64,000 nt of DNA, taken from Bdellovibrionota bacterium. Its GTDB lineage: Bacteria > Bdellovibrionota_C > UBA2361 > CALJRW01. The position numbers were made by a program, and so were the translations under genes. The notes under the pieces are model-generated. The model worked only from the letters and a program-made list of their open reading frames with translations, was not told where the DNA came from and searched no databases. Below, piece after piece: positions 7,288-23,207 of this stretch (position 1 is its first letter; every line of letters begins with the position of its first letter). The stretch is from contig JBGSMD010000030.1 of NCBI GenBank assembly GCA_041740355.1, positions 32,001-96,000 of the forward strand, written 5' to 3'.

Positions 7288-7875
7288 TTAATTAAGTTTA
7301 TGTCCAGTTTGCCATACAGGTTCAGGTAAGTTTAATACTTTAGTAACATATCTGGATGTAACGAAGAAGTAGTCAGATAATCTGTTAAAAAATTTCAGTA
7401 AGTTTAAGTCAAGTGGTTCAGTTTGATTTAAATTCCAAAGTTTTTGCTCAAGAATTCGACATTGAACTCTGGTGCGATGCACTTGAGTTAGGAGTAAATT
7501 CCCTTGGGGCAGAACGAAATTTATGAGCGGGGCTAAGCCTTGATTCAAATCATCAATCCAAGTTTCAAGCAATACAATCTCCGATTCCGAGGGGACTAAC
7601 TCAGTTGATTTAGGGGTTAAGGCAATTACTGCACCTTGATCAAATAATCGGTTTAATAAACTTAGCATGTGTTGGCCAATCTTTTGACCGAGCTGCTTCT
7701 CCGCGGTGATCATAAAACTAGTTGACCCAAGTTCAAGCATTAAACTATCTAAACAGGCCAAAACCTCTATTCGCTCATTGGATTTTTCAGTGATTTGTCC
7801 GTTTGCTAAATAAGTTTGTCCAAGATCTCCATTCTTTGTGTAGACCTTATGAATTTTTACCATAAAAAACTCCAT
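7288..7875 (-). CDS. PduO-type ATP:cob(I)alamin adenosyltransferase (divergent)
   Basis: KVYTKNGDLGQT, FVLPQG and NRLSDYFF motifs. Confidence 0.85.
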   Translation of the reverse strand: MEFFMVKIHKVYTKNGDLGQTYLANGQITEKSNERIEVLACLDSLMLELGSTSFMITAEKQLGQKIGQHMLSLLNRLFDQGAVIALTPKSTELVPSESEIVLLETWIDDLNQGLAPLINFVLPQGNLLLTQVHRTRVQCRILEQKLWNLNQTEPLDLNLLKFFNRLSDYFFVTSRYVTKVLNLPEPVWQTGHKLN

Positions 7876-8132
7876 AGATTGAGGTAACTAATTAATGTCT
7901 TATTTATAGACATTGTTTTTATCTGAGTATTGAAAAATTAAACATTGTTTTAAATAAAAATCAAAAAGTTAAAAATTTAACTAATAATTTCAAATAGTTG
8001 TATACTGTTAAAGATTGGCACACTTTTTGGTAACTTATTACACCTAAACTGAATCATATCTAATGAAATAAATAGTTTAGTTTATTTATTAAGCAGACGA
8101 TGGGATTAGTTGTTAATAGTTAAATTAACGTA

Positions 8133-9131
8133 ATGAATATTAGTATGTTAGATAGCGAAAGTCTAAATAAATTTGAAAATAAGTTTGAGCAACCTCAAAT
8201 ACTTAGCGATGAATTCTTTCAGCCTGCGGCCATAACTGACCCAGGTTGCGAACGAGAACTCAATGAGGACCGTTATGCAGTGATTGAATCAGCTTCAGGC
8301 TTAGTTTGGGTAGTTTGTGATGGCATGGGTGGAGTTAAGGGTGGTGAGCTTGCCGCACAACTGGTAATCGATTCTGTTAAAAGAACATTAGATTCTGACG
8401 TACAGTTAAAACCGGAAGACGCTTTAAGGGAAGCATTTGCTGAAGCTAATCGTATTGTAGTGTTGCGCAGGCAAAACCAAGCCTTTTCACAAATGGGAAC
8501 TACCGCGGTAGGAGCAATTTTTCAAGATCGTCAAGTAACAATTGTTAACATTGGTGATTCACGAGCATATCTAATTAGCGATGGTCGAATTAAACAGCTT
8601 ACCGAAGATCATACTTATGTTCAGCAATTAGTTAAGTCTGGACAGTTGCGAGAAGAAGAAGCTTTGGAACATCCCCAAGCTCACGTCTTAACTAGAGCAG
8701 TAGGATCAGATCCAACTTTAAATGTTGAATTACATAATTACTGGATTTGGGATGTAGAATCACCGAGTGATCAAGATTACTTACTTTTTTGTACTGATGG
8801 TTTGTACAGTATGATTACAGATCAAGAGATTCTTGATCTAGCTTTAAAATTTCCTCCTCAAATTAGCTGTAGTCAAATGGTTGAATTAGCTAAAGAGCGC
8901 GGAGGATATGATAATATCACTGTAGCAGTAGTGCCACTCGTGGGTAAGCTAAGAAAAGCGCCACCTGCAGGATATGTCTTACCTCAGGTAAAGAAAGAAG
9001 TGGATAAGAAGAGTATGAGTATAGAAGCTTTGAAACCTTTTATTCTTAAGAATTTTTTAATGATAGTTGGACTAAGCTTAATCGCTTTGATTATCGCAGT
9101 AGTCTTGATTTTATTAGCATTAACTAGGTAA
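8133..9131 (+). CDS. PP2C/PPM (Stp1/PrpC-type) Ser/Thr phosphatase with C-terminal TM helix
   Basis: NEDR, VCDGMGG, MGTT, IGDSRAY, LTRAVG, CTDGL, GGYDNITV; hydrophobic C-terminus. Confidence 0.95.
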   Translation: MNISMLDSESLNKFENKFEQPQILSDEFFQPAAITDPGCERELNEDRYAVIESASGLVWVVCDGMGGVKGGELAAQLVIDSVKRTLDSDVQLKPEDALREAFAEANRIVVLRRQNQAFSQMGTTAVGAIFQDRQVTIVNIGDSRAYLISDGRIKQLTEDHTYVQQLVKSGQLREEEALEHPQAHVLTRAVGSDPTLNVELHNYWIWDVESPSDQDYLLFCTDGLYSMITDQEILDLALKFPPQISCSQMVELAKERGGYDNITVAVVPLVGKLRKAPPAGYVLPQVKKEVDKKSMSIEALKPFILKNFLMIVGLSLIALIIAVVLILLALTR

Positions 9132-9136
9132 AAATA

Positions 9137-10159
9137 ATGAGTAAAGAAAATAATGATAAAGCTGCTCGCGCACGAAATAAGACGGTAATGCTGACTCCAG
9201 ATATTGCCAATCAGATGCGTTCTAGGTTAATGACAGGAACTCATCGCTCTGGAAGTACAGAAAAATTAGACACTGGTTTAATTAACCAAGTTCGCGAAAA
9301 TTTTGGTGCTCCCCAAACTCGGGAAAGAGATACTGAAGATAAGCAAACACAAATTATCGATTCAAGTAGGTTTATGAATCAATTGCCAGCAATTGAGGAG
9401 GAAACAGAATTAGAGGTGAATTTTTTGGATGCATTAAAGTCACGTGAGACACCGCGTTCGCCCGAAACTAGAAATGCACCTGTGGTTCAGATCGATAAGT
9501 TAGATTTTGATGTTGATGAGCCAGAAGTAATCTTAGCACCAGTTGAACAGCGCTCCATAATTGAAGAAGATTTTGTGGCACTAGAAAATTTGGATGATGA
9601 TTTCACCGAAGATTTAATGTCAGTAAAACAAACAAGAATTAGCCCAGAGCCGGAGTCTTATAGAATTGAGATTCCAGAAAATAATTTTGAAGAGGAGATA
9701 AAAATGAATCAGACAGTTGGAAGTTTAAATACAGATTTAAAACGCGGAATTCCTAGTAGCCCAGTGAAGCAAGCGGGAGTATCAGAATCGCAGTGTCTTA
9801 ACGGCGATATTATTAAGTGGGAAAAAGAAACACCGCTAGTCGGATTCCTGGTCTCATTTGATGGAAATCCTAAAGGGGACTTTGTGATTTTGCGTAATGG
9901 ACGTCTGATCGTTTCCGCGGATCAGTCAGACAAGGGTAATTTACTGGTGATTAATGATGAGTCTGTCTCTCCGATGCATGCTATAATCAGAGTATCAGAA
10001 TCAAGCATCGTTGTTCTGGATCAATTATCAGAGAATGGGACAAAGATTCAAAAAGCAGATGGCGCGACAATCGAATTATCAGGTGATAAAGCTAATTTAG
10101 AACACGGGGATACACTTTCATTTGGGGATCGAAATTATAAGGTCTGTGTTCTATTCTAG
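9137..10159 (+). CDS. FHA-domain protein (C-terminal FHA, long acidic low-complexity N-terminus)
   Basis: LVGFLVSFD..G.F..L, DESVSPMHA, DQLSENGT, LEHGDTLSFG. Confidence 0.85.
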   Translation: MSKENNDKAARARNKTVMLTPDIANQMRSRLMTGTHRSGSTEKLDTGLINQVRENFGAPQTRERDTEDKQTQIIDSSRFMNQLPAIEEETELEVNFLDALKSRETPRSPETRNAPVVQIDKLDFDVDEPEVILAPVEQRSIIEEDFVALENLDDDFTEDLMSVKQTRISPEPESYRIEIPENNFEEEIKMNQTVGSLNTDLKRGIPSSPVKQAGVSESQCLNGDIIKWEKETPLVGFLVSFDGNPKGDFVILRNGRLIVSADQSDKGNLLVINDESVSPMHAIIRVSESSIVVLDQLSENGTKIQKADGATIELSGDKANLEHGDTLSFGDRNYKVCVLF

Positions 10160-10433
10160 TCTGCAGAATTAGTTTGAGCTGTTTTTGGTAGAAGATGTCG
10201 ATCTGTAAACAGTCACATGATATTTAAAGGTTTCCTGAATGCAATTTGTTATTCACAAGTTATCGTCAAAAAACAGCGATATTGATCTTGGTGAAATTGC
10301 TAACTTCAAGTACTTTTAGATATCATGGCAACAAGTAAATTCTTTTTAGAGTGGTACTTGTTTTACCATCAGATTATACTCACAGCTTTTCATTTTTTGA
10401 TAAAAAATGAAAAGAAAGGAGAGCGAGCAAAAT

Positions 10434-10615
10434 CCTGTCGCCTTGTCCGCCATAGCTTAGCGGAGGAGGAAGCGAAAGTGGAAGACAGGTGTTGCCGTAG
10501 AAAAAGCACCAAACTCTACGCAAATCTGCGGGGAGTATTGGTTTTGTCTTTTACTGCGTAATCTTGGCTTATGCCAAGATTACGCTCGCCCTCCGCAAAT
10601 TTCATCTGCGGAGGG
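10434..10615. repeat. GC-rich multi-hairpin region containing a REP-like motif, upstream of the kinase
   Basis: CCTTGTCCGCCATAGCTTAGCGGAGGAGGA (10441-10470); perfect 13-bp IR 10556-10585; hairpin 10589-10615. Confidence 0.7.
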
Positions 10616-10627
10616 TTTATATAAGTA

Positions 10628-12121
10628 ATGAACTTGACAGGAGAGCATACATTTAATTTACAACCAGGAGCGGTAATTGCTGGTCGCTTTGAAATACTAA
10701 AGGCTTTAGGGTCAGGTAGTATGGGATTGGTTTATGCCTGTCGTGATCGAGAATTCTCAGGGAGAATTTTAGCGGTTAAAGTTCTGTTTCCTGAAGTAGC
10801 CAACGATCAAGTTTCCATGGCCCGTTTTCGCAATGAAATTGTTGCCTCTTATAAAGTTTCCCACCCCAATGTAATTCGTTCGTTTGAGTTAGTTCGCGAT
10901 GACGATTTGATCGCCTACACAATGGAACATATTGATGGTGGCACGCTGCTAGAATTCATTAGCGCAGATAAACTAATTGATCTTAATTTTGCTATTAAGC
11001 TGATGATTCAAATGTGTGCAGGGGTTCAAGCAATTCATGATGCGGGTATTGTGCACCGTGATTTAAAACCAGAAAATATTCTCTTGACCAATGAAAACTC
11101 CGTTAAAATTGCCGACTTTGGTATAGCTCGAACGGCTCATGGGCCAAAGCTTACGGAACATGGTGGTGTTGTTGGTACTATTGATTATGTTAGTCCCGAA
11201 TACATCTTAGAATCCAAAGTAGATTGGAGGTCAGATATTTATGCCCTTGGAGTTCTAAGTTATGAGTTAGTTACTGGGCATGCTCCGTTTCGTGGCGATA
11301 GTGTATACAGTACGATGACTAAACGCTTAAATGAAGATCCAGCGCCTCCAAGTTCGATCCGAGCGGAATGTTCCCCTGAATTAGATCATATTATCTTAAA
11401 GGCATTAGCTCGAAAAATTGATGATCGCTATCAATCGGCAGCGATCATGGCTAGCGATCTGGTTAAAATTTACCGCGAAGATCATAATAGTCCGCTATCA
11501 ATTAATAGTACTGCTTTGGTTAATGCCGATCCCACTAAGTTTAAGGGGCCCATTTTGGATCAAGAAGCAGTCGAGGCATTAGCTCCTCCGCTCCCGGAGT
11601 TAAGTAGCGTGCCAGGGGATTCTGCAACTACTCCGAAAAGAACGCGTTCCCGAACTGATTCACATGTAAAAATTAATTTCCAACCCGTTAATAGTACTAA
11701 TGACTCTGATCGTAATACGTTGAATCAGCTTAATTTGGCTAAGACCGCAACAATTGAACCAGGAGTTATTGATATTGCAGCTTATTATCATAATCGAGTT
11801 AATGATAATTCCAAGATGGAAAGTGTGATTGATCGCTCTATGAATCGTAGTATGACAAGTCCCAATAATCTTTCGGAGTCAATTCAGATTAATACTGGAA
11901 GTATCAGTCAAGAAAGGCTTAGACAACTGAATAGAACGTCGTTTTCATCAAAGGTTAAAAATCAATTCCAGAGACTTATATTATTGTTCATTGCTTCTTT
12001 AGCAATTGTCTTAGGACTAGCTAGTGGTTATTATTTAATTAATTTTTTGTTTGGACCTGAAGATATTTTTCAAGTTTTGGAATCTTTAATACTTAGAATT
12101 ACTAAAATAGTTGGATTATGA
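10628..12121 (+). CDS. Hanks-type Ser/Thr protein kinase with C-terminal TM helix
   Basis: LGSGSMGLVY, AVKVL, HRDLKPENIL, DFGIA, GTIDYVSPE, SDIYALG all intact. Confidence 0.97.
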   Translation: MNLTGEHTFNLQPGAVIAGRFEILKALGSGSMGLVYACRDREFSGRILAVKVLFPEVANDQVSMARFRNEIVASYKVSHPNVIRSFELVRDDDLIAYTMEHIDGGTLLEFISADKLIDLNFAIKLMIQMCAGVQAIHDAGIVHRDLKPENILLTNENSVKIADFGIARTAHGPKLTEHGGVVGTIDYVSPEYILESKVDWRSDIYALGVLSYELVTGHAPFRGDSVYSTMTKRLNEDPAPPSSIRAECSPELDHIILKALARKIDDRYQSAAIMASDLVKIYREDHNSPLSINSTALVNADPTKFKGPILDQEAVEALAPPLPELSSVPGDSATTPKRTRSRTDSHVKINFQPVNSTNDSDRNTLNQLNLAKTATIEPGVIDIAAYYHNRVNDNSKMESVIDRSMNRSMTSPNNLSESIQINTGSISQERLRQLNRTSFSSKVKNQFQRLILLFIASLAIVLGLASGYYLINFLFGPEDIFQVLESLILRITKIVGL

Positions 12122-13275
12122 AATTATTAATTATCGATATTTCTGCTGAAGCACAGGCTAAGTGTGCCAAAAGAATTGAGACCTTTCACCGCAGTGATAT
12201 GGAAAGCCTTGATTTGCAAGTTCAACTAGTTGGCCCTGCTGATTATATTTCTCGTGTAAATGAAGTAGATGTTTTAGTTTTAGGCGCAGGGCTTGGAGAA
12301 AAAGCAATTAATATTGCCCGTCAAGCTACTTCGATGGTGCCATGGCTGCATGTAATCATGTTCGTCAATGAAACAGCGTATGGGGGAGGAGCTTTTCGGG
12401 CAGCCCATTCTGCTGGAGTTCGAAAAGTGTTTCCAGATAATGCTACCCCCCTAGATTTCTTGCAAGAACTGGTGGCAATACATGCCGAATTTAGACGTTC
12501 AGGTAGAACTCGAGATGGAATCGTTATTGCGGTAACGCATGCCAAGGGTGGCGTGGGAGCGACTACTATGGCAGCAGGTTTAGCCGAAGTTTGTTCTGCC
12601 TTTCGTCGTCGAACAATGATCTGGGATTTAGATGTTGAAACTAGAGATTTAAGTCGGGGCTTAACTGTGAATGGAGCAGAAGCAAAAGTGGTTAGTGCTT
12701 GGGTTAATGGTAGTCGTGAGGTTACTAGAGAATCATTAAATGATGCCTTAATTCCAATAAGCAGTGACGTTTCAGTTTTGATGCCACCGGATCGCATGGC
12801 GGAATCAATGGATTTAGTATGCCATACAGATAGTATTAACTTAGTACAGCGAGTCATGGAATTAGCTCGAGTATTATTTGAAGTTGTGATTGTAGATACT
12901 GCCGGTCGAATGGGTCCGGCAACTGGAGCTGTCCTTAGAAATGCAGATATAGTTTTAACAGTAATTGATGACACAGTGTTAGGTTTAACAGCAGTAGATT
13001 TGTATCTGAGCTATATTAAAACCTTGGTTGCAGATATCAATCGAGTGAGATTTTTACTTAATCCATATTCCGGTGCCTTGTTGGATATGAATCAAATAGT
13101 TTTAGCTTTGAATGAGCACAACTTACCAGATAAAGCCTGGAGCTTGCCGCCAGTTCCGAATGATCCGAAAGGCTCAGTGTGGCCAGGAACAGGTCGGACA
13201 ATTTATAGTATGGGACAAAAAGATACTCGCAACACTTTAGAGGCTATCGCCACTGAGTTAGGGTTGATTAATTAA
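12118..13275 (+). CDS. cpaE: CpaE/TadZ-like pilus assembly protein (receiver-like domain + MinD-like ATPase)
   Basis: Deviant Walker A AKGGVGATT, WDLD, VIVDT; ATGA overlap with the kinase; Tad context. Confidence 0.85.
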   Translation: MKLLIIDISAEAQAKCAKRIETFHRSDMESLDLQVQLVGPADYISRVNEVDVLVLGAGLGEKAINIARQATSMVPWLHVIMFVNETAYGGGAFRAAHSAGVRKVFPDNATPLDFLQELVAIHAEFRRSGRTRDGIVIAVTHAKGGVGATTMAAGLAEVCSAFRRRTMIWDLDVETRDLSRGLTVNGAEAKVVSAWVNGSREVTRESLNDALIPISSDVSVLMPPDRMAESMDLVCHTDSINLVQRVMELARVLFEVVIVDTAGRMGPATGAVLRNADIVLTVIDDTVLGLTAVDLYLSYIKTLVADINRVRFLLNPYSGALLDMNQIVLALNEHNLPDKAWSLPPVPNDPKGSVWPGTGRTIYSMGQKDTRNTLEAIATELGLIN

Positions 13276-13295
13276 CAGTATTTAAGGAATGATTT

Positions 13296-14183
13296 ATGTC
13301 TAGACATTTTGGTGGAGTTCCAAGTAAACGTGGACCTGATCAGCGAACATTAATAATTGTTGTAGCTAGTTTCTTTATGATCATTCTGATGGTTTTAGCT
13401 GTAATGCTAATAAAGAAAGGTGGAAATGATAATTCGGTTCAAGTTACAACAGATAATACTGATATTAACTTAGCAAATGTTTTGGTACCAATTCGACGAA
13501 TTGAAGTAGGTGAAAAACTATCGCCAGATATGTTTAGAATTGAGCTACGATCACGTTTCGGGTTATCGGAGGGAGTTATCGGTGATATGGCCTCAATTGA
13601 AGGATTCTATTCACGATCACTAATCTTACCTGAACAGCCATTGTATCGAGATTACTTAACTCAATATGGAAGTAATAATCCAATCGTTCAAGAAATTCCT
13701 GCAGGTTTCCGAGCTGTTTCTATCCGTGTGGATGATACTTCCAGCGTTGAGGGTTGGATTAGAAAAGGTTCGATTGTTGATGTGCAATTAGTTACTAAAG
13801 TTAATGCCCAAGATATCTTAAAAGTAATCGTGGAAAAAGCAAAAGTACTATCTGCTGAAAGAACGGTAGTAGCTAATACTCAACAAACTGTGGATAAGGT
13901 TCCAACCACAGTAACTTTATTAGTTAATTCAGATGACGCCAATAAAATAACTTTGGCCTCAATGAATGGACGCTTAAACTTAGTTTTGCGTAATCCTGAT
14001 GATGATATTCAAAACCCTGCATCTTCAATCGACATGCCAAATGTTATGAATTTGCAACGTAATCTTCCACAAATTGAAGCTAAGCGAAGTTGCCCGGGTC
14101 GTTTAGTTGTTGGTGGAGAAACTAGATGCATCTGTGCTAACGGCGACATGATTGAAGCAGATGAAAATGGCAAGTGTAGCTAG
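13296..14183 (+). CDS. cpaB: Flp pilus assembly protein CpaB/RcpC
   Basis: N-terminal TM, SAF domain, IPAGFRAVSIRVD..SSVEGWI..G..VDV, VTLLV, G.L.LVLRNP.D. Confidence 0.92.
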   Translation: MSRHFGGVPSKRGPDQRTLIIVVASFFMIILMVLAVMLIKKGGNDNSVQVTTDNTDINLANVLVPIRRIEVGEKLSPDMFRIELRSRFGLSEGVIGDMASIEGFYSRSLILPEQPLYRDYLTQYGSNNPIVQEIPAGFRAVSIRVDDTSSVEGWIRKGSIVDVQLVTKVNAQDILKVIVEKAKVLSAERTVVANTQQTVDKVPTTVTLLVNSDDANKITLASMNGRLNLVLRNPDDDIQNPASSIDMPNVMNLQRNLPQIEAKRSCPGRLVVGGETRCICANGDMIEADENGKCS

Positions 14184-14194
14184 AGTTTCAAGTA

Positions 14195-14228
14195 TCTTGG
14201 AGACTTTAATTAATTAAAGTCTCCAAGA
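14195..14228. promoter_or_regulatory. Perfect 34-bp palindrome between cpaB and cpaF (hairpin or operator)
   Basis: TCTTGGAGACTTTAATTAATTAAAGTCTCCAAGA equals its own reverse complement. Confidence 0.6.
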
Positions 14229-14252
14229 ATAATTTTATGAGTTAATTATAAG

Positions 14253-15770
14253 ATGTCAGATAAAGACAACGACTTAAGCGGATTATTCTCAACTAGAAGT
14301 AGCCGTGCTAGGTTAACAACTGATGGAAAAGGAGCTGAGCATACTAGTGGAGGTTCCTCTTCTTCGTCGGAAGTGGCAACACCTTCTACTAATCCAACTG
14401 GCAACAATAACAATCGCCGTGATACACAAAAACTGAGTGGTCAACTTGGTGCCCGAGTGGGTTCAAGTGGAGCGATGAGATCGTCTAGCTTATCTACGCT
14501 AGGAAATACAATCCTGAAGGAAGTCCGTCGAGAATTAGGAAATGAATTCAACATTTCCGATGAGCAAGGTTCTGATGTTAGTGAAGCTAATATCACTCGA
14601 GCTGTTGATCGTGTTTTGAAAAAACGTTCTGAGTCATTAGATGATTTAGAAAAAGCAAATATTATTATCCATCTTCAAAAAGATTTATTAGGATGGGGGG
14701 TTTTACAACCATTAATTGATAATGTGGAAGTTACAGATATTCACGTCTATGATTATCGTACAGTAGTTTTACAAAGAGGTAAAAACAGTGAAATTACCGG
14801 AATTAACTGGCCAAATCATCAGGCTTATGTTTCTTTTATTGATCGAGTTTTATTAAGACTTGGTAAGTCCTTATCTACTGCGCAACATACTATTGATGCC
14901 TCATTTGTAAATGGAATACGTATTTGTGCAGTTCATGAAAGTGTTTGTGGTGCAAAAGGACCTTACCTGTGTATTCGTGTTCCAAGGATTGTCGATGCTA
15001 CTCTTGATAGTATTGTTACTTATCAAGTTGCCCCTCCAATAATCGTGGATTATTTAGCTTCCTTAACTCGTTCGGGACTTTGCACGATCATGCTAGCAGG
15101 TGAGACTGGTACTGGTAAGACAACACTAATGCGTTGCTTGGCATCTCAGTTTGGACCAGATGAAGCAATTGTCAGTGTAGAAGATACTCCGGAATTAAAC
15201 TTAGTTCACCCATTTTATCGTTGTTTAGTTTCTCGTGCTCCAAACTCGGAAGGTATTGGGGAGGTTACTTTGCAAGAACACATTAAAACAACTCTAAGGA
15301 TGACACCGACTAGAGTTCTCTTAGGGGAGATGCGTACTCCCTTAGCCGCCGAAGCCTTCTTAGAATCTGCTCAGACTGGTCACGTAGGAATGTCCACAAT
15401 CCACGCACGTAATGCCAAGGAAACATTAGTTCGATTAGAAAGCTTATTGGGACGGGCCCAGAAATCAGTTTCTGTAGATATTATTAGGCAGCAAATTGCC
15501 TTAGCTGTAGATTTAGTTATTTGGTTAGTTCGCGAAAAAGGTAGTGGTAAACCTAGGATCGCCGAAGTTGTTGAAATCGGTCATTATGTGGAAGGACAGA
15601 TTCAAGTTAGGCCAATGTTTACTTTAATCAAACCTGGTCAACAGCCTGTTTGGAGAGTTGAATCTTGGGCCAGTAACTTTGAGGAAGTATTAGCGGATGA
15701 TAATATTTTCTTAGGTAATTTACCAACTGAAGTTACTCTAAATACCGCCGGCTCTGGTGGACTTCGTTAG
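14253..15770 (+). CDS. cpaF: CpaF/TadA-family secretion ATPase
   Basis: Walker A GETGTGKTT, Asp box VEDTPEL, Walker B LRMTPTRVLLGEMR, His box TGH..MSTIHA. Confidence 0.93.
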   Translation: MSDKDNDLSGLFSTRSSRARLTTDGKGAEHTSGGSSSSSEVATPSTNPTGNNNNRRDTQKLSGQLGARVGSSGAMRSSSLSTLGNTILKEVRRELGNEFNISDEQGSDVSEANITRAVDRVLKKRSESLDDLEKANIIIHLQKDLLGWGVLQPLIDNVEVTDIHVYDYRTVVLQRGKNSEITGINWPNHQAYVSFIDRVLLRLGKSLSTAQHTIDASFVNGIRICAVHESVCGAKGPYLCIRVPRIVDATLDSIVTYQVAPPIIVDYLASLTRSGLCTIMLAGETGTGKTTLMRCLASQFGPDEAIVSVEDTPELNLVHPFYRCLVSRAPNSEGIGEVTLQEHIKTTLRMTPTRVLLGEMRTPLAAEAFLESAQTGHVGMSTIHARNAKETLVRLESLLGRAQKSVSVDIIRQQIALAVDLVIWLVREKGSGKPRIAEVVEIGHYVEGQIQVRPMFTLIKPGQQPVWRVESWASNFEEVLADDNIFLGNLPTEVTLNTAGSGGLR

Positions 15771-16235
15771 CTATAACTTTAAATTTCAGTTCATTTGGTG
15801 ACTAACTTTACAAGCTAAGTTTCCTTGGGAGATCAATTTTTCTATAAAGAAAAATTCTTCTATTCGATTGTAGCTCCTAAAGAATTGAAACTAAAGGTTA
15901 TTCCCATTCATCTTATTTAATTTTATACTGTATAAATAGTAATTGCCTGAAGTCTTTTTCAAAAAAGTTTTTTGAGAATCTTTGTGGAGTTACTATTTTA
16001 GATTGTATTTAAAATCATTGACTTGATTCTCAAGCGCGAATTGCTTGAGGGTGAGCAAAGGGTCTTTCAAACTTGGATTTTTCTCTTTTGTAGTAAAGCT
16101 AAGGTAGAAATAAAGATTGATCAGCCCAAGTCCTAAAAGGTAATTTTAAAAACTTAGCATCTTATTGCTAGGTGTAATGATTAGCTTTATCAAAGCTCAA
16201 ATTAAAGTTTTGTGTCTTAATTAATATTTTCCGAA

Positions 16236-17207
16236 ATGAATATCCTGATCCTTGGAATAATGTTTTTAGTTTGTTTGATTGCGGGGGTAATTGTCTACCT
16301 TTTATTTGGCATGACCAAGTCTAAAAAGACATCTAGCAAAAGCCAAATCCAAAATATTATGCAGGCTCAACGTAGTAATGGTAATTTGAGTCGGGCAGAA
16401 CAAAGAAATAATAAACTTGATAAGGTTTTATTATCAACAGAAAAAAAAGTTACAACTTCCGGTGATATGACTTTGCCGAAGAAGCTGCGTTATGCCAGAT
16501 GGAAGATGCCTCCGATTGTGTTTATTGTTTTACAAGTAGTTATAAGTCTAGTTGCAGTTTTTATGGCTAATATTTTTTTTGATTGGCCAATTATCTGCGT
16601 TTCTATTTTCTTAGGTCCGATTATCATGAATTCGCTAGTCGGTATGGCGATGAACCGAAGATTTAAATCCTTTGACAAAGATTATCCTTCCTTTCTACTT
16701 AACGTTGTAAGTATGTTACGAATAGGGATGAACGTAGTAACCGCAATCCAATCTGCTGCCGAAGGATTAAATCCCGAGTCCTTAGTCCGAGAAGAAGTTA
16801 CTTTGATGCTTGATCGTTTAAAACTTGGGGTGTCGGAAGATAAGTCAATTGGTGCCTTTGGTGAGGATATCAATCATCCGGAAATTGAGCTTTTTGTTCA
16901 GGCTGTAATTTTAAGTCGCCGCTTAGGGGGTAACTTATCAGATACGCTGGATCGCTTGTCTCAACAAGTACGTAAACGTCAATTTTTCCGTTCTTCCGCG
17001 GAGGCTGCAGTATCCTTACAGAGAGGTTCGATTTGGGTAATCCTAGGGATCATGGTTTCTTTAGAAGGGTATATTTTAGTAACCAGTCCGGATTTAATTA
17101 TGACCGCGATCAATGATGATTTTGGTTGGCTAGTTTGGCAAGGGGCTGTTGTGACAATCTTTATTGGAATTTTATGGGTGAGACAAGTTACAAAAATTAA
17201 AGTTTAA
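16236..17207 (+). CDS. tadB: TadB-like inner-membrane platform protein (T2SSF domain)
   Basis: RR...FD..YP.FL......LRIG, GGNLSDTLDRL; TM pattern. Confidence 0.88.
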   Translation: MNILILGIMFLVCLIAGVIVYLLFGMTKSKKTSSKSQIQNIMQAQRSNGNLSRAEQRNNKLDKVLLSTEKKVTTSGDMTLPKKLRYARWKMPPIVFIVLQVVISLVAVFMANIFFDWPIICVSIFLGPIIMNSLVGMAMNRRFKSFDKDYPSFLLNVVSMLRIGMNVVTAIQSAAEGLNPESLVREEVTLMLDRLKLGVSEDKSIGAFGEDINHPEIELFVQAVILSRRLGGNLSDTLDRLSQQVRKRQFFRSSAEAAVSLQRGSIWVILGIMVSLEGYILVTSPDLIMTAINDDFGWLVWQGAVVTIFIGILWVRQVTKIKV

Positions 17208-17210
17208 TCA

Positions 17211-18140
17211 ATGGATGTTAATACACTACTAATAATCTTAATTGCTTTTTTTATCCTGATATTCTTTGGAGTATTTGCTTATTTATTTTTAGGTCGGAAG
17301 AAAGAAAGTAATTTAGCGAACTTGATTAAAGTTACTAGGCCTAATGCTGGCAAGATTAATCGAAATTCAGTTAAAGAGAAAATGGCTTCGGCAAATGAGG
17401 ACATTCGTGAGATCACTGAAACTCAGCGCAGAAATTATTCGAAGAAAAAAGTTAAAGTTACGGAAGAGGAGCGTTATTATCATGCCGGCCTGTTAAGTAA
17501 TAAGCAACGTGATAATTTCAAAAAATTCCGATTTTATGCACCTATTGTTGCGGCTGTTATTTTGACGATCTTCACTTATTTTGTGTTAGGGAAAAATCTA
17601 GCCTTATTTGGCTTAGCGATTGGAGCTTTAGCCGGAGTAGCGCTTCCAGGTTTTTATTTAGATCGCTTGATCAGTAAGCGTTACGAAGAGATAATGTATT
17701 ATTTGCCACTTGTAATTGAGCAAATTGCCATTGGTGTAAGCAGCTCGCTAGATATTGGCCCCTGTCTTCAACGCGTAATCCAAATGGCAGATGAACGAGA
17801 TTCCCATAATGTGGTGACAGAATTAATTTTTCATGCCGAGCGCTATATCCGAACAGGGGTAAGTTTAGAAGAAGCAATGAATGAGATTGGTACTAAGTCA
17901 GGTCACCCAGAATTAAAACATGCGTTTATGGCTCTTGCTCAAGTTTCTAAGCATGGGGGAGAGATCTCTCACCAATTACAAGAATTAGCAAGTGCGGTTT
18001 CAAGTCAACGAGAGACTCAGATTGATTCCAAGATTAAGCGCTTGGAGTTAAAAGCAACTGGGCCAGTTGCATTGGTTTTTGTAGCTTTTATGGGAACTTT
18101 AATGATCGGTATTATGATCAAAATTAAAAAGAATTTATAA
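17211..18140 (+). CDS. tadC: TadC-like inner-membrane platform protein
   Basis: R..EI...LP..IE.....V.S.L, L.Q..K.GG.I...L, K...PV; follows tadB. Confidence 0.85.
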   Translation: MDVNTLLIILIAFFILIFFGVFAYLFLGRKKESNLANLIKVTRPNAGKINRNSVKEKMASANEDIREITETQRRNYSKKKVKVTEEERYYHAGLLSNKQRDNFKKFRFYAPIVAAVILTIFTYFVLGKNLALFGLAIGALAGVALPGFYLDRLISKRYEEIMYYLPLVIEQIAIGVSSSLDIGPCLQRVIQMADERDSHNVVTELIFHAERYIRTGVSLEEAMNEIGTKSGHPELKHAFMALAQVSKHGGEISHQLQELASAVSSQRETQIDSKIKRLELKATGPVALVFVAFMGTLMIGIMIKIKKNL

Positions 18141-18298
18141 ATGTTTAGCCTTGGTAGTCAACGAATGAAAAAACTTGAAGTGTCTTTGCTGTAGTAAAAG
18201 TACAGTTGTGACTTGAGCATTTTTTTTGAATTCGACCTACACTCTAACTTAAAAATTAACATAAAGGCATAACCTTAGTGTTACTATGATGAATTTGA

Positions 18299-20380
18299 AT
18301 GCTTAAATTTTTAAGAAACATTAATAGCGATTTTTTCGTAGCTCTATTCGTATTGTGCGTCGCTGCGCTGCTATTTGTTCCCCTTCCTACAGCACTATTA
18401 GATGTTTTAATTGCTGGGAATATCGCCTTTTCTTTACTTCTTTTATTGATTGGTCTTTCTCTTAACAATGTACTCTCCCTCCTTACATTTCCCACCTTAT
18501 TACTGCTATCAACATTATTTCGACTGAGCTTAAATGTCGCATCTTCCCGTCTAATTCTTAGTCAAGGAGATGCTGGTCAAGTTATCCATTCATTTGGTAC
18601 ATTTTTAATTCAGGGTGAATTAGTAGTTGGGATAATTATTTTCTTAATGTTAACCGTAATTAATTTGATAGTCATTACTCGTGGAGCGTCACGAGTATCG
18701 GAAGTAGCTGCCCGCTTCACCTTGGATGCTTTGCCAGGAAAGCAATTAACGATCGATTCCGATTTACGGACAGGTTTAATCTCCGCGGAGGATGCTAAAA
18801 AAAGACGTGAGGATTTGCGTAAAGAGAGCCAAGTATACGGTTCCATGGACGGAGCGATGAAATTTGTTCAAGGTGATGCCATTGCTGGAATCTTTATAAT
18901 TTGCGCTAATATGTTTGGGGGGATGTATCTTGGACTACGATCGGGCTTAAGTTTCTCTGAGGCACTTGAAACCTACACTGTCTTAACAATTGGAGATGGA
19001 TTAGTTACGCAAATTCCGGCATTGTTAGTTTCTAGTTGTGCGGGATTTGTGGTTACACGAGTCTCTACGGAAAATACTTCAACGCTAAGTTCAGATTTAG
19101 TAAGTCAGTTGCTTCGCAATCGTAAAATCCTTTTCACTGCTGCTATTGTAACCGCTTTTATTGCCTTCTTGCCAGGATTGCCAGCATGGCCGTTCTTATT
19201 TGCAGCATTGGTATTTGTATTCTTAGGGTTTATTATTCGATTTGACTCTCAGGGTAAACAGATTCTTTTTTCCAATAGTCCCCAGCTTAGACAAATAAGT
19301 GGCGGCAGTTCAAATTCTAAGATGTTGACGAATTCTACAACTGGCGCCTCAAATTTAAAAATTTATTTATCTGCCGATTTAATTAAAATCTTTGGAAATA
19401 ATCAGACTTATTATTTTGATTGGTGGAAACAAGAACAGCAGCAGTTTCATGAAAACTATGGAGTTGATTTACCAGATTTTCAGTTAATCCTTCGTCCCGA
19501 ATACTCGGGCGGAGAATTTAATTTAATTAATAAAGATTATTCCTTTTATCATGGAAACATCTCCGCGCAAACTTGCTACATAGAAATTGCCAGTGAGCAA
19601 TTAGCTTGTTATGGAATTAAAGTAATTAAGTCTGTCAGGGCACCAATTTCCCAACGGCGAGTATCTTTGGTCTTGGATTCTAATTTAATTCGTAGTTTGA
19701 AAGCTAATTCTCAATTAGTAGTTTTTGATGCATTGCAGTTTATCGCGCTACAAGCAAAAGATTTCTATTTTAGAAATCCCGAGCAACTTTTTACTTTAAC
19801 TAATATTCATTTATCAATCAAAGAGATCGAAAATCATTTTCCAGGATTATTTACGGAATTATTTGCTAATAATTTCTTTAATTCAGCCAGATTGTTGGAG
19901 CTTTCCAATGCCTTATTTCGATCCGGTCTTTACTACAAAAATGTTCGGACTCTTTTAGAGGATCTTGCGATTTATAGTTCCTCTTATGGTAAAGATCTAA
20001 TTCAAGCTAATGAATTTAATATTTCGGACATTGTCGACTTCTTACGAATGCAAAATAAGCGCCAGATTGTCGCTAGTCACTTAACACATAAAAAAAGTTT
20101 AAAAGTCATTTATGCCGGAGCAGAACTAAAACATTCTTTACTGCAAGCATCCAAACAAGATCGAAGTGTAAAAAAACAACTACTGAAATCTTTAGAAACC
20201 GTATATGATAGTTTAGCTGCTAAATCGAATTACACGGTTATGTTACTTGTGCCGAACGAATTGCGTCTAAAGTTAAACTCATTATTAATTGAGAATGGCT
20301 TAACCTATTCAGTGATTAGTTACAATGAAATTGACCCGGCTGTTAGTATTGAACCATTAGGAACTTGGAATTATAGTTAG
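18299..20380 (+). CDS. sctV: FHIPEP-family type III export gate protein, SctV(LcrD)-like with divergent cytoplasmic domain
   Basis: FPTLLL.STLFRLSLNVASSRLIL, RVSEVAARFTLDALPGKQ, GSMDGAMKFVQGDAIAG, LTIGDGLVTQIPALL, VISYNEI. Confidence 0.9.
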   Translation: MLKFLRNINSDFFVALFVLCVAALLFVPLPTALLDVLIAGNIAFSLLLLLIGLSLNNVLSLLTFPTLLLLSTLFRLSLNVASSRLILSQGDAGQVIHSFGTFLIQGELVVGIIIFLMLTVINLIVITRGASRVSEVAARFTLDALPGKQLTIDSDLRTGLISAEDAKKRREDLRKESQVYGSMDGAMKFVQGDAIAGIFIICANMFGGMYLGLRSGLSFSEALETYTVLTIGDGLVTQIPALLVSSCAGFVVTRVSTENTSTLSSDLVSQLLRNRKILFTAAIVTAFIAFLPGLPAWPFLFAALVFVFLGFIIRFDSQGKQILFSNSPQLRQISGGSSNSKMLTNSTTGASNLKIYLSADLIKIFGNNQTYYFDWWKQEQQQFHENYGVDLPDFQLILRPEYSGGEFNLINKDYSFYHGNISAQTCYIEIASEQLACYGIKVIKSVRAPISQRRVSLVLDSNLIRSLKANSQLVVFDALQFIALQAKDFYFRNPEQLFTLTNIHLSIKEIENHFPGLFTELFANNFFNSARLLELSNALFRSGLYYKNVRTLLEDLAIYSSSYGKDLIQANEFNISDIVDFLRMQNKRQIVASHLTHKKSLKVIYAGAELKHSLLQASKQDRSVKKQLLKSLETVYDSLAAKSNYTVMLLVPNELRLKLNSLLIENGLTYSVISYNEIDPAVSIEPLGTWNYS

Positions 20381-22777
20381 ATGAGTGATAATTTAATCCC
20401 CCATACCCCCGGACCATATACGGATTATTTTCAGATCTCTTATAAAATTGCGGAGACTTTTGGTGCAAATTTATATAGTGGCATAAATGTTGATAGTTCC
20501 AAGCCCACTGTACTCTGGGTTTCCAAATTTCCTGTTAATTTAACTTCTGCGGAAGCTCAAAATCTATTGTTGCAAATGCACAGTATCGATGTAATTGATC
20601 CTCCAGTTGGACCATTTGATACCTATGGAATTGATTTTCATGGTTTAGCATTTCTAAGTTTTACTGAAAAAATATCAAATAATTTAAATCAATCACGCGC
20701 TAATACAGAAGAGATGGAGCGAAGGCTGTTTAAGGCCATTCGATTGGTTCATAAAGCGCATCAAGCAAATTGTTGCTTTGGAGATCTTAACCCCAACTCT
20801 TTTTGGTTAAATAATTCTGGAGGTGTTGAATTAACCTCTGTCCTAAAATTACCGATGACATTTCAAAAAAGTGATCTGGCGAGCTTTGATTCACAGTTGA
20901 TTGCTTATCTGGCACCGGAGGTTTTTGAAAAGGTAGTTAGCACCCAAAGTGATGTCTACTCCTTGGGGATGATTGCTTTCTATCTAATCCTCAATCGTCT
21001 TCCCGTGGAAGTTGAATTAACGCCAGAAGGATTACCAAAAATTGATTATACTTTAGAAAATACTTTCAAAAAACAATTGCCTCCCTACTTATTGGAAGTA
21101 TTAGAGAAAGCAATTTCCTTGGACCCGGCGTTGCGATATCAGACAGCCGGCGAGCTAATTGAGGCTTTGGTTGCTATTAATGAACGGATTAAAGTGGGAG
21201 ATAAACGGGAGACTCCCGCAACTGAGCCAATAGTAAATATTCTTCCAGCGATTCGTTCAAAAGATCAAATGCAGATTGAAAAATTTCAAGAATCTTTAGC
21301 TAAACGTTTAGCTAATAATGCTTATAAAATTATCTTTTCTGTCATTGCATTTGTAATTTTAGCATCCTTAGTAACTGGGTTAATGTTTTATCGCCATTAT
21401 CGCCAAACGTTAGCTCGTGAGATTAATGAAGCAACAGCGCCATTTTCAGGAGGTAATCCTGAACTGACTAAGTCCATTGCGCAAATTTCCAATATTAGTG
21501 CTGAACTCAAAGATAAGATTGCCGAGATTCAGTCTTTGGCAGAATCTCCCGATCCCTTAAGTTATGGTTTATTAGTTGCCAGTGCGGACAATAGCAAAGA
21601 TGATTTGCTAGTTAAAAACTCTCAGTCAGCCATTATCCAAAAATTGCAAAGTTCTGGGCAAGTACTGACAGCGATTCAACTTGAACAATGGTTTCGCTAT
21701 GGAAATAAGGATATTAAAAGTCCAGTCTTCGGGAAGGTCTTAAAACTTCTTGACCCAGCAATGCCTTTAAAAAATAAACTTTCAGCAATTAATAAATTAA
21801 ACAGTCAAGATTTAAATATTTCTACTCGTCTTGCTGCGGCACTATATTTTGATTTAAAACAACCGGATAGTTTTAAAGAATTATTAGTTCAGCAAATTGG
21901 GAAAGGTTTAGGTATTCCCGCAGCTGAAAAACTTTCTGCTTTGGCTTTAATCATGCAACATGAAGCTTTACATCAGATTTTTTCAGAACAAATTAAATCT
22001 AATTATTCAAAACTTTCGGAATATGATTTAAAGGTTTTGTTAGAATATTTTGCTAAACGTGATCAGCAAGTATTTAAAGATTTAGTTAAGATAATAATTG
22101 AACAAAATATATATCCTAAACTTAAAGCCCGTTTTTTAGTGGCAATTATTAGTAATAAAGATCTTAGTATCGATCTAACAGAAGCTCTGACTATGGTGGC
22201 AGTTGATAAAGTTGATGCATCTTATCTAAATCGAATTGTTACATGGCAGTCACCACAGGCAGAAGAATTACTATTTTCTTTAATTTCAATCTTAGAAGAT
22301 AACGAAGGTAAAGTAATGGTTCTTGACAGTCTAGCTATCCGAAACTTGCAATCAAATCCAGGGCAAGGGTTTGTTAAATGGTTAAAGGAAAATAAGTGGG
22401 AGCAAAGGCAAAAATACCTAGATTCCTTAGCTACTTTAGCTACTTCAGTAAACTTTACTGAACAAGAGATTTTATCAGCATTAAAAATATTTCAAAAAGA
22501 CTTACAAGATACTGGGTTGCAAAATGCATTATTAGCTAGTGCCGATGATCGCTTACCATTATTATTTATTGAAAACTTCTCGGAGAGTATTGGCTTAGCA
22601 CAAAAACTGAATTTACTTAAACATCCAAATACTGAAATTCGCAAAGCAATTATTAAACGACTGGAAACAAATGACGTTGGTGCAATGAAGTTGATCGTTG
22701 ATGCCTATTCTCTGGAGCAAAATGAAGAGTTAAAGAATATCTATAAAGAGAAGTATTGGTTTGTGAAGAACCGTTAA
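20381..22777 (+). CDS. Membrane-anchored pseudokinase with large C-terminal helical domain
   Basis: Kinase C-lobe motifs kept (AYLAPE, SDVYSLG, P..RYQTA); catalytic loop GDLNPNSF; no DFG, VAIK Lys or Gly-loop; one TM at ~aa 315-336. Confidence 0.85.
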   Translation: MSDNLIPHTPGPYTDYFQISYKIAETFGANLYSGINVDSSKPTVLWVSKFPVNLTSAEAQNLLLQMHSIDVIDPPVGPFDTYGIDFHGLAFLSFTEKISNNLNQSRANTEEMERRLFKAIRLVHKAHQANCCFGDLNPNSFWLNNSGGVELTSVLKLPMTFQKSDLASFDSQLIAYLAPEVFEKVVSTQSDVYSLGMIAFYLILNRLPVEVELTPEGLPKIDYTLENTFKKQLPPYLLEVLEKAISLDPALRYQTAGELIEALVAINERIKVGDKRETPATEPIVNILPAIRSKDQMQIEKFQESLAKRLANNAYKIIFSVIAFVILASLVTGLMFYRHYRQTLAREINEATAPFSGGNPELTKSIAQISNISAELKDKIAEIQSLAESPDPLSYGLLVASADNSKDDLLVKNSQSAIIQKLQSSGQVLTAIQLEQWFRYGNKDIKSPVFGKVLKLLDPAMPLKNKLSAINKLNSQDLNISTRLAAALYFDLKQPDSFKELLVQQIGKGLGIPAAEKLSALALIMQHEALHQIFSEQIKSNYSKLSEYDLKVLLEYFAKRDQQVFKDLVKIIIEQNIYPKLKARFLVAIISNKDLSIDLTEALTMVAVDKVDASYLNRIVTWQSPQAEELLFSLISILEDNEGKVMVLDSLAIRNLQSNPGQGFVKWLKENKWEQRQKYLDSLATLATSVNFTEQEILSALKIFQKDLQDTGLQNALLASADDRLPLLFIENFSESIGLAQKLNLLKHPNTEIRKAIIKRLETNDVGAMKLIVDAYSLEQNEELKNIYKEKYWFVKNR

Positions 22778-22836
22778 GCCCTGAACTCAAAGCTTACTAC
22801 TAGTTATTTTGAAATTTAAAGAGTACAGAGATTGAG

Positions 22837-22938
22837 AACCCGTCTTCGCACTACGTGCTATGACGTGGTAAACCCGTCTTTCGCATATGTGCTACAACAC
22901 GGTAAGCCCGTATTCGTACTATGTGCTATGACGTGGTT
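22837..22938 (+). repeat. Three tandem 34-bp REP-like units
   Basis: AACCCGTCTTCGCACTACGTGCTATGACGTGGTA / AACCCGTCTTTCGCATATGTGCTACAACACGGTA / AGCCCGTATTCGTACTATGTGCTATGACGTGGTT. Confidence 0.85.
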
Positions 22939-22975
22939 ACTTTCTTAATAATTTTTCAAATTATTAAGAAAGTAA
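22937..22975. terminator. Perfect 18-bp inverted repeat directly 3' of tRNA-Leu (possible terminator or processing hairpin)
   Basis: TTACTTTCTTAATAATTT-ttc-AAATTATTAAGAAAGTAA. Confidence 0.55.
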
Positions 22976-23055
22976 TGCGGAAGGAGGGACTTGAACCCTC
23001 ACGCCGAAGCACTAGATCCTAAGTCTAGCGTGTCTGCCAATTCCACCACCCCCGC
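22976..23055 (-). tRNA. tRNA-Leu(TAG), CCA not encoded
   Basis: Reverse complement GCGGGGG-TGGTGGAATTGGCAGACAC-G-CTAGA-CTTAGGA-TCTAG-variable arm-GAGGG-TTCAAGT-CCCTC-CTTCCGC-A. Confidence 0.95.
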
Positions 23056-23107
23056 AAAGAAATGATTAGGAACCACATAATAATCAATTTTTAATTTTTT
23101 ACAAGTG

Positions 23108-23207
23108 TTGTGTATGGCCAGTGTGCATTGCGCACTGGCCTTACACAAAATCACGCCGAAGCATGCTAAGCATAATTGTTCTAATCTTCAGACAATGCGT
23201 AGGCGGA
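23108..23207. repeat. Hairpin plus REP-like motif between tRNA-Leu and tig
   Basis: TTGTGTATGGCCAGTG..CACTGGCCTTACACAA hairpin (23108-23148); CGCCGAAGCAT...ATGCGTAGGCGG (23153-23206). Confidence 0.6.

Follow-up and report, generated by a model that had tools for sequence, protein, structure and literature searches.

Gene content of the Tad-FHIPEP locus

The present work concerns a ten-gene locus of a Bdellovibrionota genome in which genes for the assembly platform of a Flp/Tad-type pilus are followed by a gene for an export-gate protein of the FHIPEP (SctV/FlhA) family, as found in type III secretion systems (T3SSs). The DNA analysed (referred to below as the window) is 64,000 nucleotides long and corresponds to positions 32001-96000 of contig C30 of this genome, whose assembly comprises 3.27 Mb in 74 contigs, with 36% G+C and 97% completeness. 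The locus occupies window positions 8133-22777 and consists of ten open reading frames (ORFs), all of them on the + strand. The identities and coordinates of these genes, from that for the PP2C phosphatase to that for the pseudokinase, had been given in a preliminary description of this DNA, and the ORF listing and Pfam searches are in agreement with them (Table 1). Two close gene junctions which were pointed out there are likewise seen in the sequence: the kinase and TadZ (CpaE) genes share an ATGA overlap (12118-12121), and the stop codon TAG of the FHIPEP gene (20378-20380) directly abuts the ATG of the pseudokinase gene at 20381, with 0 bp between them.

Table 1. Genes and other features of the Tad-FHIPEP locus, in window coordinates
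Feature	Position	Strand	Basis of the assignment
PP2C-type Ser/Thr phosphatase (Stp1/IreP-like)	8133..9131	+	Pfam PP2C 66 bits; NCBIfam Stp1_PP2C_phos 232 bits (cut-off 230)
FHA protein with C-terminal FHA domain	9137..10159	+	Pfam FHA 34.7 bits, residues 266-330
Hanks-type Ser/Thr kinase	10628..12121	+	Pfam Pkinase 181.5 bits; PknB-like model 300 bits
TadZ/CpaE-like ParA/MinD-family ATPase	12118..13275	+	AAA_31 and CbiA; CpaE_hom 59 bits (below cut-off)
CpaB/RcpC, periplasmic Flp-pilus assembly protein	13296..14183	+	RcpC 71 bits; TIGR03177 pilus_cpaB 126 bits (cut-off 71)
CpaF/TadA-family secretion ATPase	14253..15770	+	T2SSE 105 bits; TadA-family 195 bits (below cut-off 373)
TadB-like platform protein	16236..17207	+	T2SSF 49.9 bits; multiple transmembrane segments
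TadC-like platform protein	17211..18140	+	T2SSF 44.5 bits; collinear with FHIPEP gene in 30/30 loci
FHIPEP export-gate protein (SctV/FlhA family)	18299..20380	+	FHIPEP 527.7 bits, profile positions 3-656 of 657
Membrane pseudokinase, 798 aa	20381..22777	+	Pkinase 27.3 bits (below cut-off 31.7); model fold
Hairpin with 15-bp stem, then T-rich tail, in the cpaB-cpaF gap	14195..14228	+	Consensus scan only
tRNA-Leu, downstream boundary of the cluster	22975..23056	-	ARAGORN/Rfam

The core proteins by which a Tad system is recognised, viz. CpaF, TadB, TadC, TadZ and CpaB, are all encoded by the locus, and CpaB scores above its equivalog cut-off. The scores of CpaF and TadZ lie below the respective cut-offs, yet for each of these proteins the corresponding Tad model is the top NCBIfam match; CpaF and TadZ are, respectively, 66-76% and 52-73% identical to the copies in related genomes. 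The N-terminus of CpaF is Ser/Thr-rich and of low complexity, and no FHA domain is detected in it by Pfam. A crude hydropathy scan predicts a C-terminal membrane anchor in the PP2C protein (peak at residues 309-327), a tail anchor in the Hanks kinase (peak at 450-468) and an N-terminal transmembrane segment in CpaB. The gate protein combines a cytoplasmic domain with 8-9 membrane segments, as predicted, and in the FHA protein the long N-terminal region is probably disordered. The further statement of the preliminary description, that no gene for a Flp pilin, prepilin peptidase, secretin, SctRSTU, SctN or flagellar protein is present in the window, also stands, as the matches to these families in this genome are all on other contigs. 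When the window was searched by tblastn with 42 queries (viz. the ten proteins of the cluster, other T3SS and Tad proteins of the genome, and F1-beta as a control), only the cluster itself was recovered.

Conservation of the linkage between the Tad genes and the export gate

The conservation of this gene order was determined within a sample of 124 genomes of the phylum, all belonging to one class, of which 90 others are from the same order as this genome. A FHIPEP match at the level expected of orthologs (E <= 1e-100) is present in 82 of these 90 genomes. Within the 30 best loci, this genome included, the genes for TadB, TadC and FHIPEP are collinear and their reading frames intact in every case, and in 28 the FHIPEP gene is immediately followed by the pseudokinase gene. 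Of the two exceptions, one is due to a contig which ends about 1.4 kb past the gene and the other has one longer reading frame. For 10 relatives, sequences extending 20 kb to either side of the gate gene were retrieved; the genes for TadZ, CpaF, TadB, TadC and FHIPEP are collinear in all 10 of them and the entire complement of ten genes was detected in 7, indicating that the PP2C-FHA-kinase head travels with the Tad and gate genes, in line with the single phospho-regulated locus that had been proposed. For the remaining three, there is no match for CpaB in G043 and none for the pseudokinase in G109, and in G036 only the core from TadZ to the pseudokinase is present. On a broader scale, among the best 80 FHIPEP loci from 185,579 species genomes, Tad genes are found beside the gate only in the three closest, two of which (L013 and L015) hold all ten genes, with the third, a short locus (L014), showing TadC-FHIPEP. 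The other 77 of these loci, from injectisomes, Myxococcota, Chlamydiota and similar sources, are without Tad genes.

Based on these counts across the relatives, the adjacency of the Tad and FHIPEP genes is far more than what is expected by chance. The genes of the Tad platform and of the gate form a linked unit that is inherited together, and the linkage of Tad motor and export gate that was claimed for the window alone thus extends to 30/30 loci and, in other orders of the class, to loci where they are contiguous with the rest of a T3SS core (see below). The presence of the same layout in the relatives suggests that the two machines work together. In comparison with a genome of the same genus (G041), the number of nonsynonymous substitutions per site (dN) is 0.057 for the gate and 0.13 for the pseudokinase, with synonymous substitutions (dS) saturated for both. 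As this points to purifying selection on both genes, despite the losses of SctN and the flagellum described below, the gate and the pseudokinase are not decaying.

The T3SS half of the locus and its arrangement in other orders

In the preliminary description the sctV gene had been left without T3SS partners. This is not the case, as its partners are found on contig C6 of the same genome, in the order FHA(x2)-FHA-SctJ-u81-u331-SctR-SctS-(SctT)-SctU-u80-TPR. The C6 set is complete for SctR, S, T and U, SctJ and a SctQ-like protein (the FliM-like u331), and contains in addition two FHA proteins and a TPR protein, its SctU being short; the window SctV is therefore not an orphan. The genome has a second SctRSTU set on contig C64 and a second FHIPEP on C20, and the set to which the window gate belongs is indicated by six loci examined from other orders of the class. 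In five of these (G024, G033, G005, G019 and G004), the FHIPEP and pseudokinase genes are followed on the same strand by the two-FHA gene of the C6 type, and the contig of the sixth stops inside the FHIPEP gene. The loci in G024 and G019 extend further to SctJ, u81 and the FliM-like u331, and that in G024 also to SctR. The most complete arrangement is seen in G005, where the whole set, Tad and T3SS genes together, forms one run of ~25 kb on the + strand. It begins with PP2C-FHA-kinase-TadZ-(93 aa)-CpaB-CpaF-TadB-TadC-FHIPEP-pseudokinase and continues, directly after the pseudokinase, with FHA2x-FHA-SctJ-u81-(158 aa)-u331-SctR-S-T-U. Further, the closed one-contig genome G057 contains a FHIPEP of the window type, a C6-type set and flagellar genes, and neither a second FHIPEP nor a C64-type set was found in it. 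Due to this co-occurrence, and the synteny seen in the other orders, the window gate is assigned to the C6 set, and the locus in the window is interpreted as the first half of a Tad-T3SS super-locus that occurs throughout the class. In G057, the Tad half and the T3SS half are ~1.4 Mb apart. From the comparison of these gene orders, the ancestral state was probably one Tad and T3SS locus; when it was split in the order to which this genome belongs, the gate and the pseudokinase would have stayed with the Tad genes and not with SctRSTU.

The possibility that the two halves are independent machines, viz. a Flp pilus for adhesion or motility and a T3SS-like exporter, which share only their regulators or a polar address so that the linkage reflects co-regulation, has to be considered at this point. 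A shared signalling hub would agree with the PP2C-FHA-kinase head and with the additional FHA proteins, the halves are separable in this order, and the same genome contains one further module of the Tad type (C46) and one further T3SS-like set (C20 and C64), which are unlinked. However, in 28 of the 30 loci the FHIPEP gene is not at the edge of an operon, as it lies between tadC and the pseudokinase gene, and the gate stayed with the Tad genes when the locus was split. In Myxococcus, moreover, the coupling of such machines has been shown experimentally, according to the available text of PMC12075869. In view of this, independent machines appear quite unlikely.

The second T3SS-like set of this genome is itself divided. 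On C20 (L009, 12740-17775) a sigma factor, SctJ, a 96-aa ORF, a FHIPEP of 613 aa and a TPR protein are encoded, an arrangement that is kept in G056 and G043, and the 613-aa FHIPEP forms a very long branch in the tree. The part on C64 (L010, 13435-17201) has three ORFs without assignment, then SctR, S, T and a short SctU, and after them a PAS/GAF histidine kinase.

The Flp-pilus side

In 8 of the 10 relatives, one or two Flp pilin genes are located between tadZ and cpaB, and the pilins they encode carry a motif of the G-A/S-x-VEYALLVALIA type (the G/xxxxEY type). In the window the Flp gene is gone and the tadZ-cpaB junction measures only 20 bp. Four Flp genes scoring above the cut-off are present elsewhere in this genome, on C2, C64, C63 and C10, and the best copy, that on C2, is 42-66% identical to the Flps in the clusters of the relatives. 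On this gene content and these sequence similarities, the Tad side is assigned as a real Flp-pilus system. The other parts of such a system are dispersed as well: the genome has two secretins (C54 and C46) and one prepilin peptidase of the A24 family (C67), none of which is linked to the cluster.

A second Tad module of more conventional type is found at C46:92311-97738 (L158, 6312-11738), where TadZ, a weak Flp-like ORF of 68 aa, CpaB, CpaF, TadB and TadC are followed by two membrane-anchored proteins without assignment and a response-regulator protein, with no secretin adjacent. The CpaF of this module is 36% identical to that of the window. A linkage of this module in relatives to the second FHIPEP (that of C20) was looked for in 2 loci (G056 and G043) and not seen.

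Nature of the T3SS core and phylogeny of the gate

The protein u331 has the fold of the FliM middle domain: its model matches Salmonella FliM (8umd_C) with a Z-score of 13.6 and a root-mean-square deviation of 3.8 over 172 residues, and three further structures of this domain with Z-scores of 12.8-13.4. Two u331 orthologs each match FliMN_C twice in Pfam (E values of 2.4e-15 and 1.3e-9). FliMN_C is not detected by Pfam in the u331 of this genome, the C-terminal half of which is poorly modelled (predicted local distance difference test, pLDDT, <50 for residues 181-298). Based on the predicted fold and the Pfam matches of the orthologs, u331 is assigned as a C-ring protein of the FliM/SctQ type. 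SctJ of the C6 set, a lipoprotein of small size, is anchored at its C-terminus and scores higher against the YscJ model than against that of FliF. The C6 SctU is 224 aa long and covers profile positions 10-205 of 335, so that it consists of just the membrane domain and lacks the C-terminal switch domain. The TPR protein shows a weak likeness to SctY and to the LcrH/SycD chaperones, with scores of 38 and 37 bits that do not reach the cut-offs, and SctT was assigned solely by its position and membrane profile. For u81, u80 and this positional SctT no match was obtained in Pfam or NCBIfam. The two-FHA protein of C6 is tail-anchored and has no periplasmic domain, and a canonical SctD with periplasmic rings was not recognised.

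The scores of all of the core proteins fall below the flagellar and the injectisome equivalog cut-offs alike. This is also true for the gate, which scores 524.7 bits against the hrcV model (TIGR01399, cut-off 692) and 464 bits against that of FlhA (TIGR01398, cut-off 772), so that by these equivalog models it is neither a SctV of the injectisome type nor a flagellar FlhA. When 55 FHIPEPs were placed in a quick maximum-likelihood tree, those linked to Tad genes form a separate clade, with a value of 99 in the Shimodaira-Hasegawa-like approximate likelihood ratio test (SH-aLRT). This clade is placed outside the one comprising injectisomes and Chlamydiota and also outside that of the Myxococcota; the comparison with the T3SS gates of Myxococcota which the preliminary description had called for shows, in this quick tree, separate clades and no common grouping. 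The clade is tentatively sister to FlhA (SH-aLRT 90), a position to be read with caution because FlhA is represented by only three rows and several of the branches in the tree are long. A Chlamydia-like scattered T3SS was considered as an explanation and dropped.

A stronger interpretation of these relationships is that the Tad-linked core represents a third T3SS lineage, which was derived from the flagellum independently of the injectisomes and of the Myxococcota system and was built into the Flp/Tad machine as one apparatus. In the genus without SctN, export would then draw its energy either from the proton-motive force or from the Tad ATPase, with the pilus forming an outer conduit in place of needle and secretin. 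We consider this to be rather unlikely.

Absence of the ATPase and of the flagellum

No match to the FliI/SctN model was obtained in this genome (0 matches) nor in its genus-mate G041. The five ATP-synt_ab matches of this genome (on C26, C64 and C36) correspond to F1 alpha/beta, alternate F1 alpha/beta and Rho, and the same F1, alternate F1 and Rho proteins are the only matches when it is searched by tblastn with SctN of G040, whereas SctL of G040 gives none. The alternate proteins belong to an N-type F1F0 ATPase operon at C64:66328-72203 (alpha 885 bits, beta 871 bits), which is present beside the normal atp operon on C26. In most genomes of the same order, there are two FliI/SctN-type ATPases, scoring ~580-600 and ~445-465 bits. 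G040, which is from the same family as this genome, has only the lower-scoring one, the gene for which forms an unlinked sctL-sctN pair together with a FliH-like gene; the flanks of this pair show no synteny with this genome. In 12 relatives' loci, tblastn around the second SctN-like ATPases revealed no neighbour homologous to the T3SS or Tad proteins of this genome. The three f19 genomes (G109-G111) have a single FliI/SctN-type ATPase each, of the high-scoring type that is presumed to be flagellar in the flagellated relatives. The closed genome G057 has no match to the FliI/SctN family at E <= 1e-90, despite the presence of FlhA and a flagellar FliP. T3SS sets without an ATPase, or sharing one, may be common in this class.

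The absence of the ATPase bears upon the proposal made in the preliminary description that a single composite apparatus is encoded here. In such a hybrid machine, the FHIPEP/SctRSTU gate would feed or join the Tad platform, and CpaF or the proton-motive force would take the place of SctN. This would agree with the lack of a FliI/SctN-family ATPase in this genome and in G041, with the single ATPase of the f19 genomes, which scores like the presumed flagellar copy, and with the purifying selection on gate and pseudokinase in a genus without SctN. The SctU without its switch domain and the lack of a recognisable canonical SctD are both odd for an autonomous T3SS, and in the G005 run the Tad and T3SS genes are interleaved. 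However, most of the relatives retain a separate sctL-sctN pair, since two ATPases are present in most genomes of the order, and any contact between Tad and T3SS proteins is hypothetical. We also know of no docking mode between the hexameric CpaF and the nonameric FHIPEP ring. Further, the flagellar T3SS can export without its ATPase by means of the proton-motive force, and due to this the loss of SctN does not need a substitute. We regard a single composite machine, and the replacement of SctN by CpaF, as unlikely.

In genome-wide family searches, this genome shows no FlhA-type FHIPEP, no FliMN_C match and no FliI, and nothing is recovered from it by tblastn with MotA, FliL, FliM, FliN, FliO, FliQ and FliR of G046. 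The matches to FliP (on C64 and C6), Bac_export_2 (on C64 and C6) and Bac_export_1 (on C64) all lie outside the window. With two FHIPEP and two FliP matches each in this genome, G041 and G040, the family to which they belong appears to have lost the flagellum. SctJ copies are found on C6 and C20, no genome-wide family search having been aimed at SctJ. The C6 set has no linked genes for a rod, hook, needle or secretin, no search having been aimed at needle and translocon genes.

In G046, a motAB-fliLMNOPQR cluster terminates immediately before the adenosyltransferase-PP2C junction that also borders the locus in this genome, and a fliP homolog is found at the same relative position in G043. These neighbours, the placement of the clade beside FlhA in the quick tree (SH-aLRT 90) and the loss of the flagellum in the family could also be explained if the FHIPEP were a functionless leftover flagellar paralog that is hitch-hiking beside the Tad genes. 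However, the intact reading frames in 30/30 loci and the dN of 0.057 with saturated dS are in disagreement with such a remnant, a dedicated set of SctJ, FliM-like protein and SctRSTU co-occurs with the gate, and the gate was kept after the flagellum was lost. An incidental or decaying gene is thus disfavoured and very improbable. The preliminary description had allowed that the adjacency might not be conserved in relatives, or that a canonical T3SS or flagellum elsewhere could account for the gate; the adjacency is conserved, and no such T3SS or flagellum explains its presence.

The kinase, pseudokinase and FHA proteins

The last protein of the locus had been called a pseudokinase, and this is supported by its model (mean pLDDT 82), in which the N-terminal part is folded like a Hanks kinase (TM-scores by target of 0.65-0.69 for PknA/PknB). 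When 15 orthologs are aligned, neither the beta3 lysine nor the DFG aspartate is seen, and of the HRD motif a GDL remnant persists in most of them; because these catalytic residues are lacking across the orthologs, the protein is a conserved pseudokinase. The kinase fold is followed in the model by one long transmembrane helix (~318-340) and then by about 440-450 residues of all-helical repeats, and this large domain should face the periplasm. A complex prediction for FHIPEP residues 330-693 (alignment of 11 rows) and pseudokinase residues 1-300 (15 rows) gave scores of 0.11 and 0.01 against a mark of 0.32, which is uninformative either way. Three FHA proteins are present in total, one in the window and two on C6, one of which has two FHA domains. 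The window FHA protein is a paralog of a FHA protein of the C6 T3SS cluster (L012:9197-10264), with 30% identity over 179 aa (E 3e-15).

Intergenic regions and flanking genes

The genes flanking the cluster are of the housekeeping type: a cobalamin adenosyltransferase gene is found upstream (- strand, 7288-7875), and the tRNA-Leu gene (- strand), tig, clpP, clpX and lon lie downstream. Over 7800-23400, the tRNA-Leu is the only RNA detected by Rfam (E <= 0.1) and ARAGORN. Inside the cluster, gaps of 468 bp (10160-10627), 465 bp (15771-16235) and 158 bp (18141-18298) are present. The first two, each of ~465 bp, are AT-rich and have no convincing ORF and no Rfam match, and among the small ORFs in them and downstream of the pseudokinase nothing pilin-like was found. 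The hairpin in the cpaB-cpaF gap may, by its sequence, be an attenuator or a terminator. Scans for promoters (41 vs 47.1 in shuffled sequence) and terminators (9 vs 10.9) gave neither above shuffled sequence. Among public sequencing runs, none from RNA was listed as containing this DNA, and the four DNA runs that contain it are hot-spring or biofilm metagenomes from a single study, one of which may be its source. Further downstream in the window (30789-34733), a protein of 1314 aa is encoded whose sole recognised domain is a C-terminal GDSL lipase/acylhydrolase, its first ~1100 residues being without assignment.

Relationship to known systems and interpretation

The closest known system is that formed by Kil and the needle-less T3SS (T3SS*) of Myxococcus xanthus. 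According to the available text of the papers concerned, Kil recruits T3SS* and the two co-localise (PMC12075869), and T3SS* consists of SctJ, Q, RSTUV and LcrH-like chaperones, with no secretin, needle or translocon (PMC10433427). A 2025 review, as far as its available text goes, describes the association of Kil and T3SS* in one complex as still hypothetical (PMC12428579). The resemblance lies in the combination of a FHA-rich machine of the Tad type with a needle- and secretin-less SctJ/Q/RSTUV core and a LcrH-like TPR protein, as these are described in the portions available of PMC8460266, PMC12075869 and PMC10433427. Genes for Ser/Thr kinases are also found near SctV in 5 loci of Myxococcota or Bradymonadales type (including L021, L025, L044 and L051). 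However, the two systems differ in several respects. In Myxococcus the components are encoded by separate loci, whereas here their genes follow each other collinearly and, elsewhere in the class, are fully contiguous in other orders; KilF has an N-terminal FHA domain, which the window CpaF lacks; T3SS* has SctN, SctL and SctD, while the genus studied here is without SctN, SctL or a recognisable SctD with a periplasmic domain; and the window gate is outside the Myxococcota clade in the quick tree. Since that tree places the gate outside the Myxococcota lineage, such a partnership may either have originated on two occasions or be of great age. In the full-text literature, so far as it was available, no linked Tad-FHIPEP locus was found, also not in the text of papers on Bdellovibrionota or on predation, with supplementary tables (e.g. 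those listing Bdellovibrionales Kil homologs, PMC8460266) lying outside the scope of the search.

Likenesses to three other systems are more limited. With the canonical Tad/Flp systems (type IVc, viz. the Caulobacter cpa and Aggregatibacter tad loci) the locus shares TadZ, CpaB, CpaF and TadB/TadC in their usual order, with Flp in the relatives. However, it has no secretin, prepilin peptidase or pseudopilins, its ATPase scores 195 bits where the TadA-family cut-off is 373, and tadC is followed by FHIPEP and the pseudokinase. With the export apparatus of flagella and injectisomes it shares a full-length FHIPEP and, as partners, SctR, S, T and U, a SctJ lipoprotein and a FliM-like C-ring protein, but SctU is reduced to the membrane domain, the genus has no ATPase complex, and sub-cut-off scores are seen throughout. 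The PpkA-PppA-Fha1 module, by which type VI secretion in P. aeruginosa is controlled through threonine phosphorylation and which Seef et al. cite as an analogy for Kil (PMC8460266, available text), offers an analogy here also, in that a membrane-bound Hanks kinase, a PP2C phosphatase and a FHA scaffold are encoded inside a secretion locus. The machine which it controls is however a different one, and in the present case there are three FHA proteins and a pseudokinase with periplasmic helical repeats, with phosphorylation being putative.

Taking these results together, we favour the interpretation, to which we assign a probability of about 0.6, that the Flp-pilus platform and a needle-less T3SS core form a co-functional and co-regulated partnership under the control of the kinase, phosphatase and FHA proteins. 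The T3SS core is needle-less and flagellum-like, and in this genus it is without an ATPase. If this interpretation is correct, the periplasmic domain of the pseudokinase would sense an envelope or contact signal and activate the tail-anchored kinase. Phosphorylated threonines in disordered Ser/Thr-rich segments, e.g. the first ~100 residues of CpaF, would then be read by the three FHA proteins. Through these, both the pilus platform and the T3SS core would be nucleated or activated at one site, and the PP2C phosphatase would reset the switch. The Flp pilus, whose pilin genes are relocated in this genome, and the T3SS core would act as partners, as do Kil and T3SS* in the prey killing by Myxococcus. 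The order of signalling, the co-localisation and the predatory role in this scheme are what we infer from the above evidence.

A number of points weigh against this partnership. The predatory lifestyle of the lineage is only assumed, and within the lineage the support for the partnership is of a genomic nature. As the FHIPEP does not group with the gates of Myxococcota in the quick tree, the likeness to Kil and T3SS* may be convergent. The three intergenic gaps and the hairpin at 14195-14228 would allow several transcription units, and the split between the halves in this order (~1.4 Mb in G057) indicates that a tight linkage of all parts is not required. Lastly, the cluster is not linked to genes for a secretin, a prepilin peptidase or minor pilins.

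The significance of the partnership comes from work on Myxococcus during 2021-2025, in which Kil and T3SS* act together in contact-dependent prey killing. The present results provide independent comparative-genomic evidence for a partnership of a Tad-like pilus with a needle-less T3SS, in the form of a single locus that is class-wide. The Tad and T3SS halves are here genetically fused, in what may be regarded as a counterpart of the Kil and T3SS* tandem. It is also a simpler natural system, with no flagellum, no SctN, a truncated SctU and a built-in module of kinase, pseudokinase, phosphatase and FHA proteins, and it makes testable how a T3SS core without needle and ATPase works, and which signal triggers its assembly.

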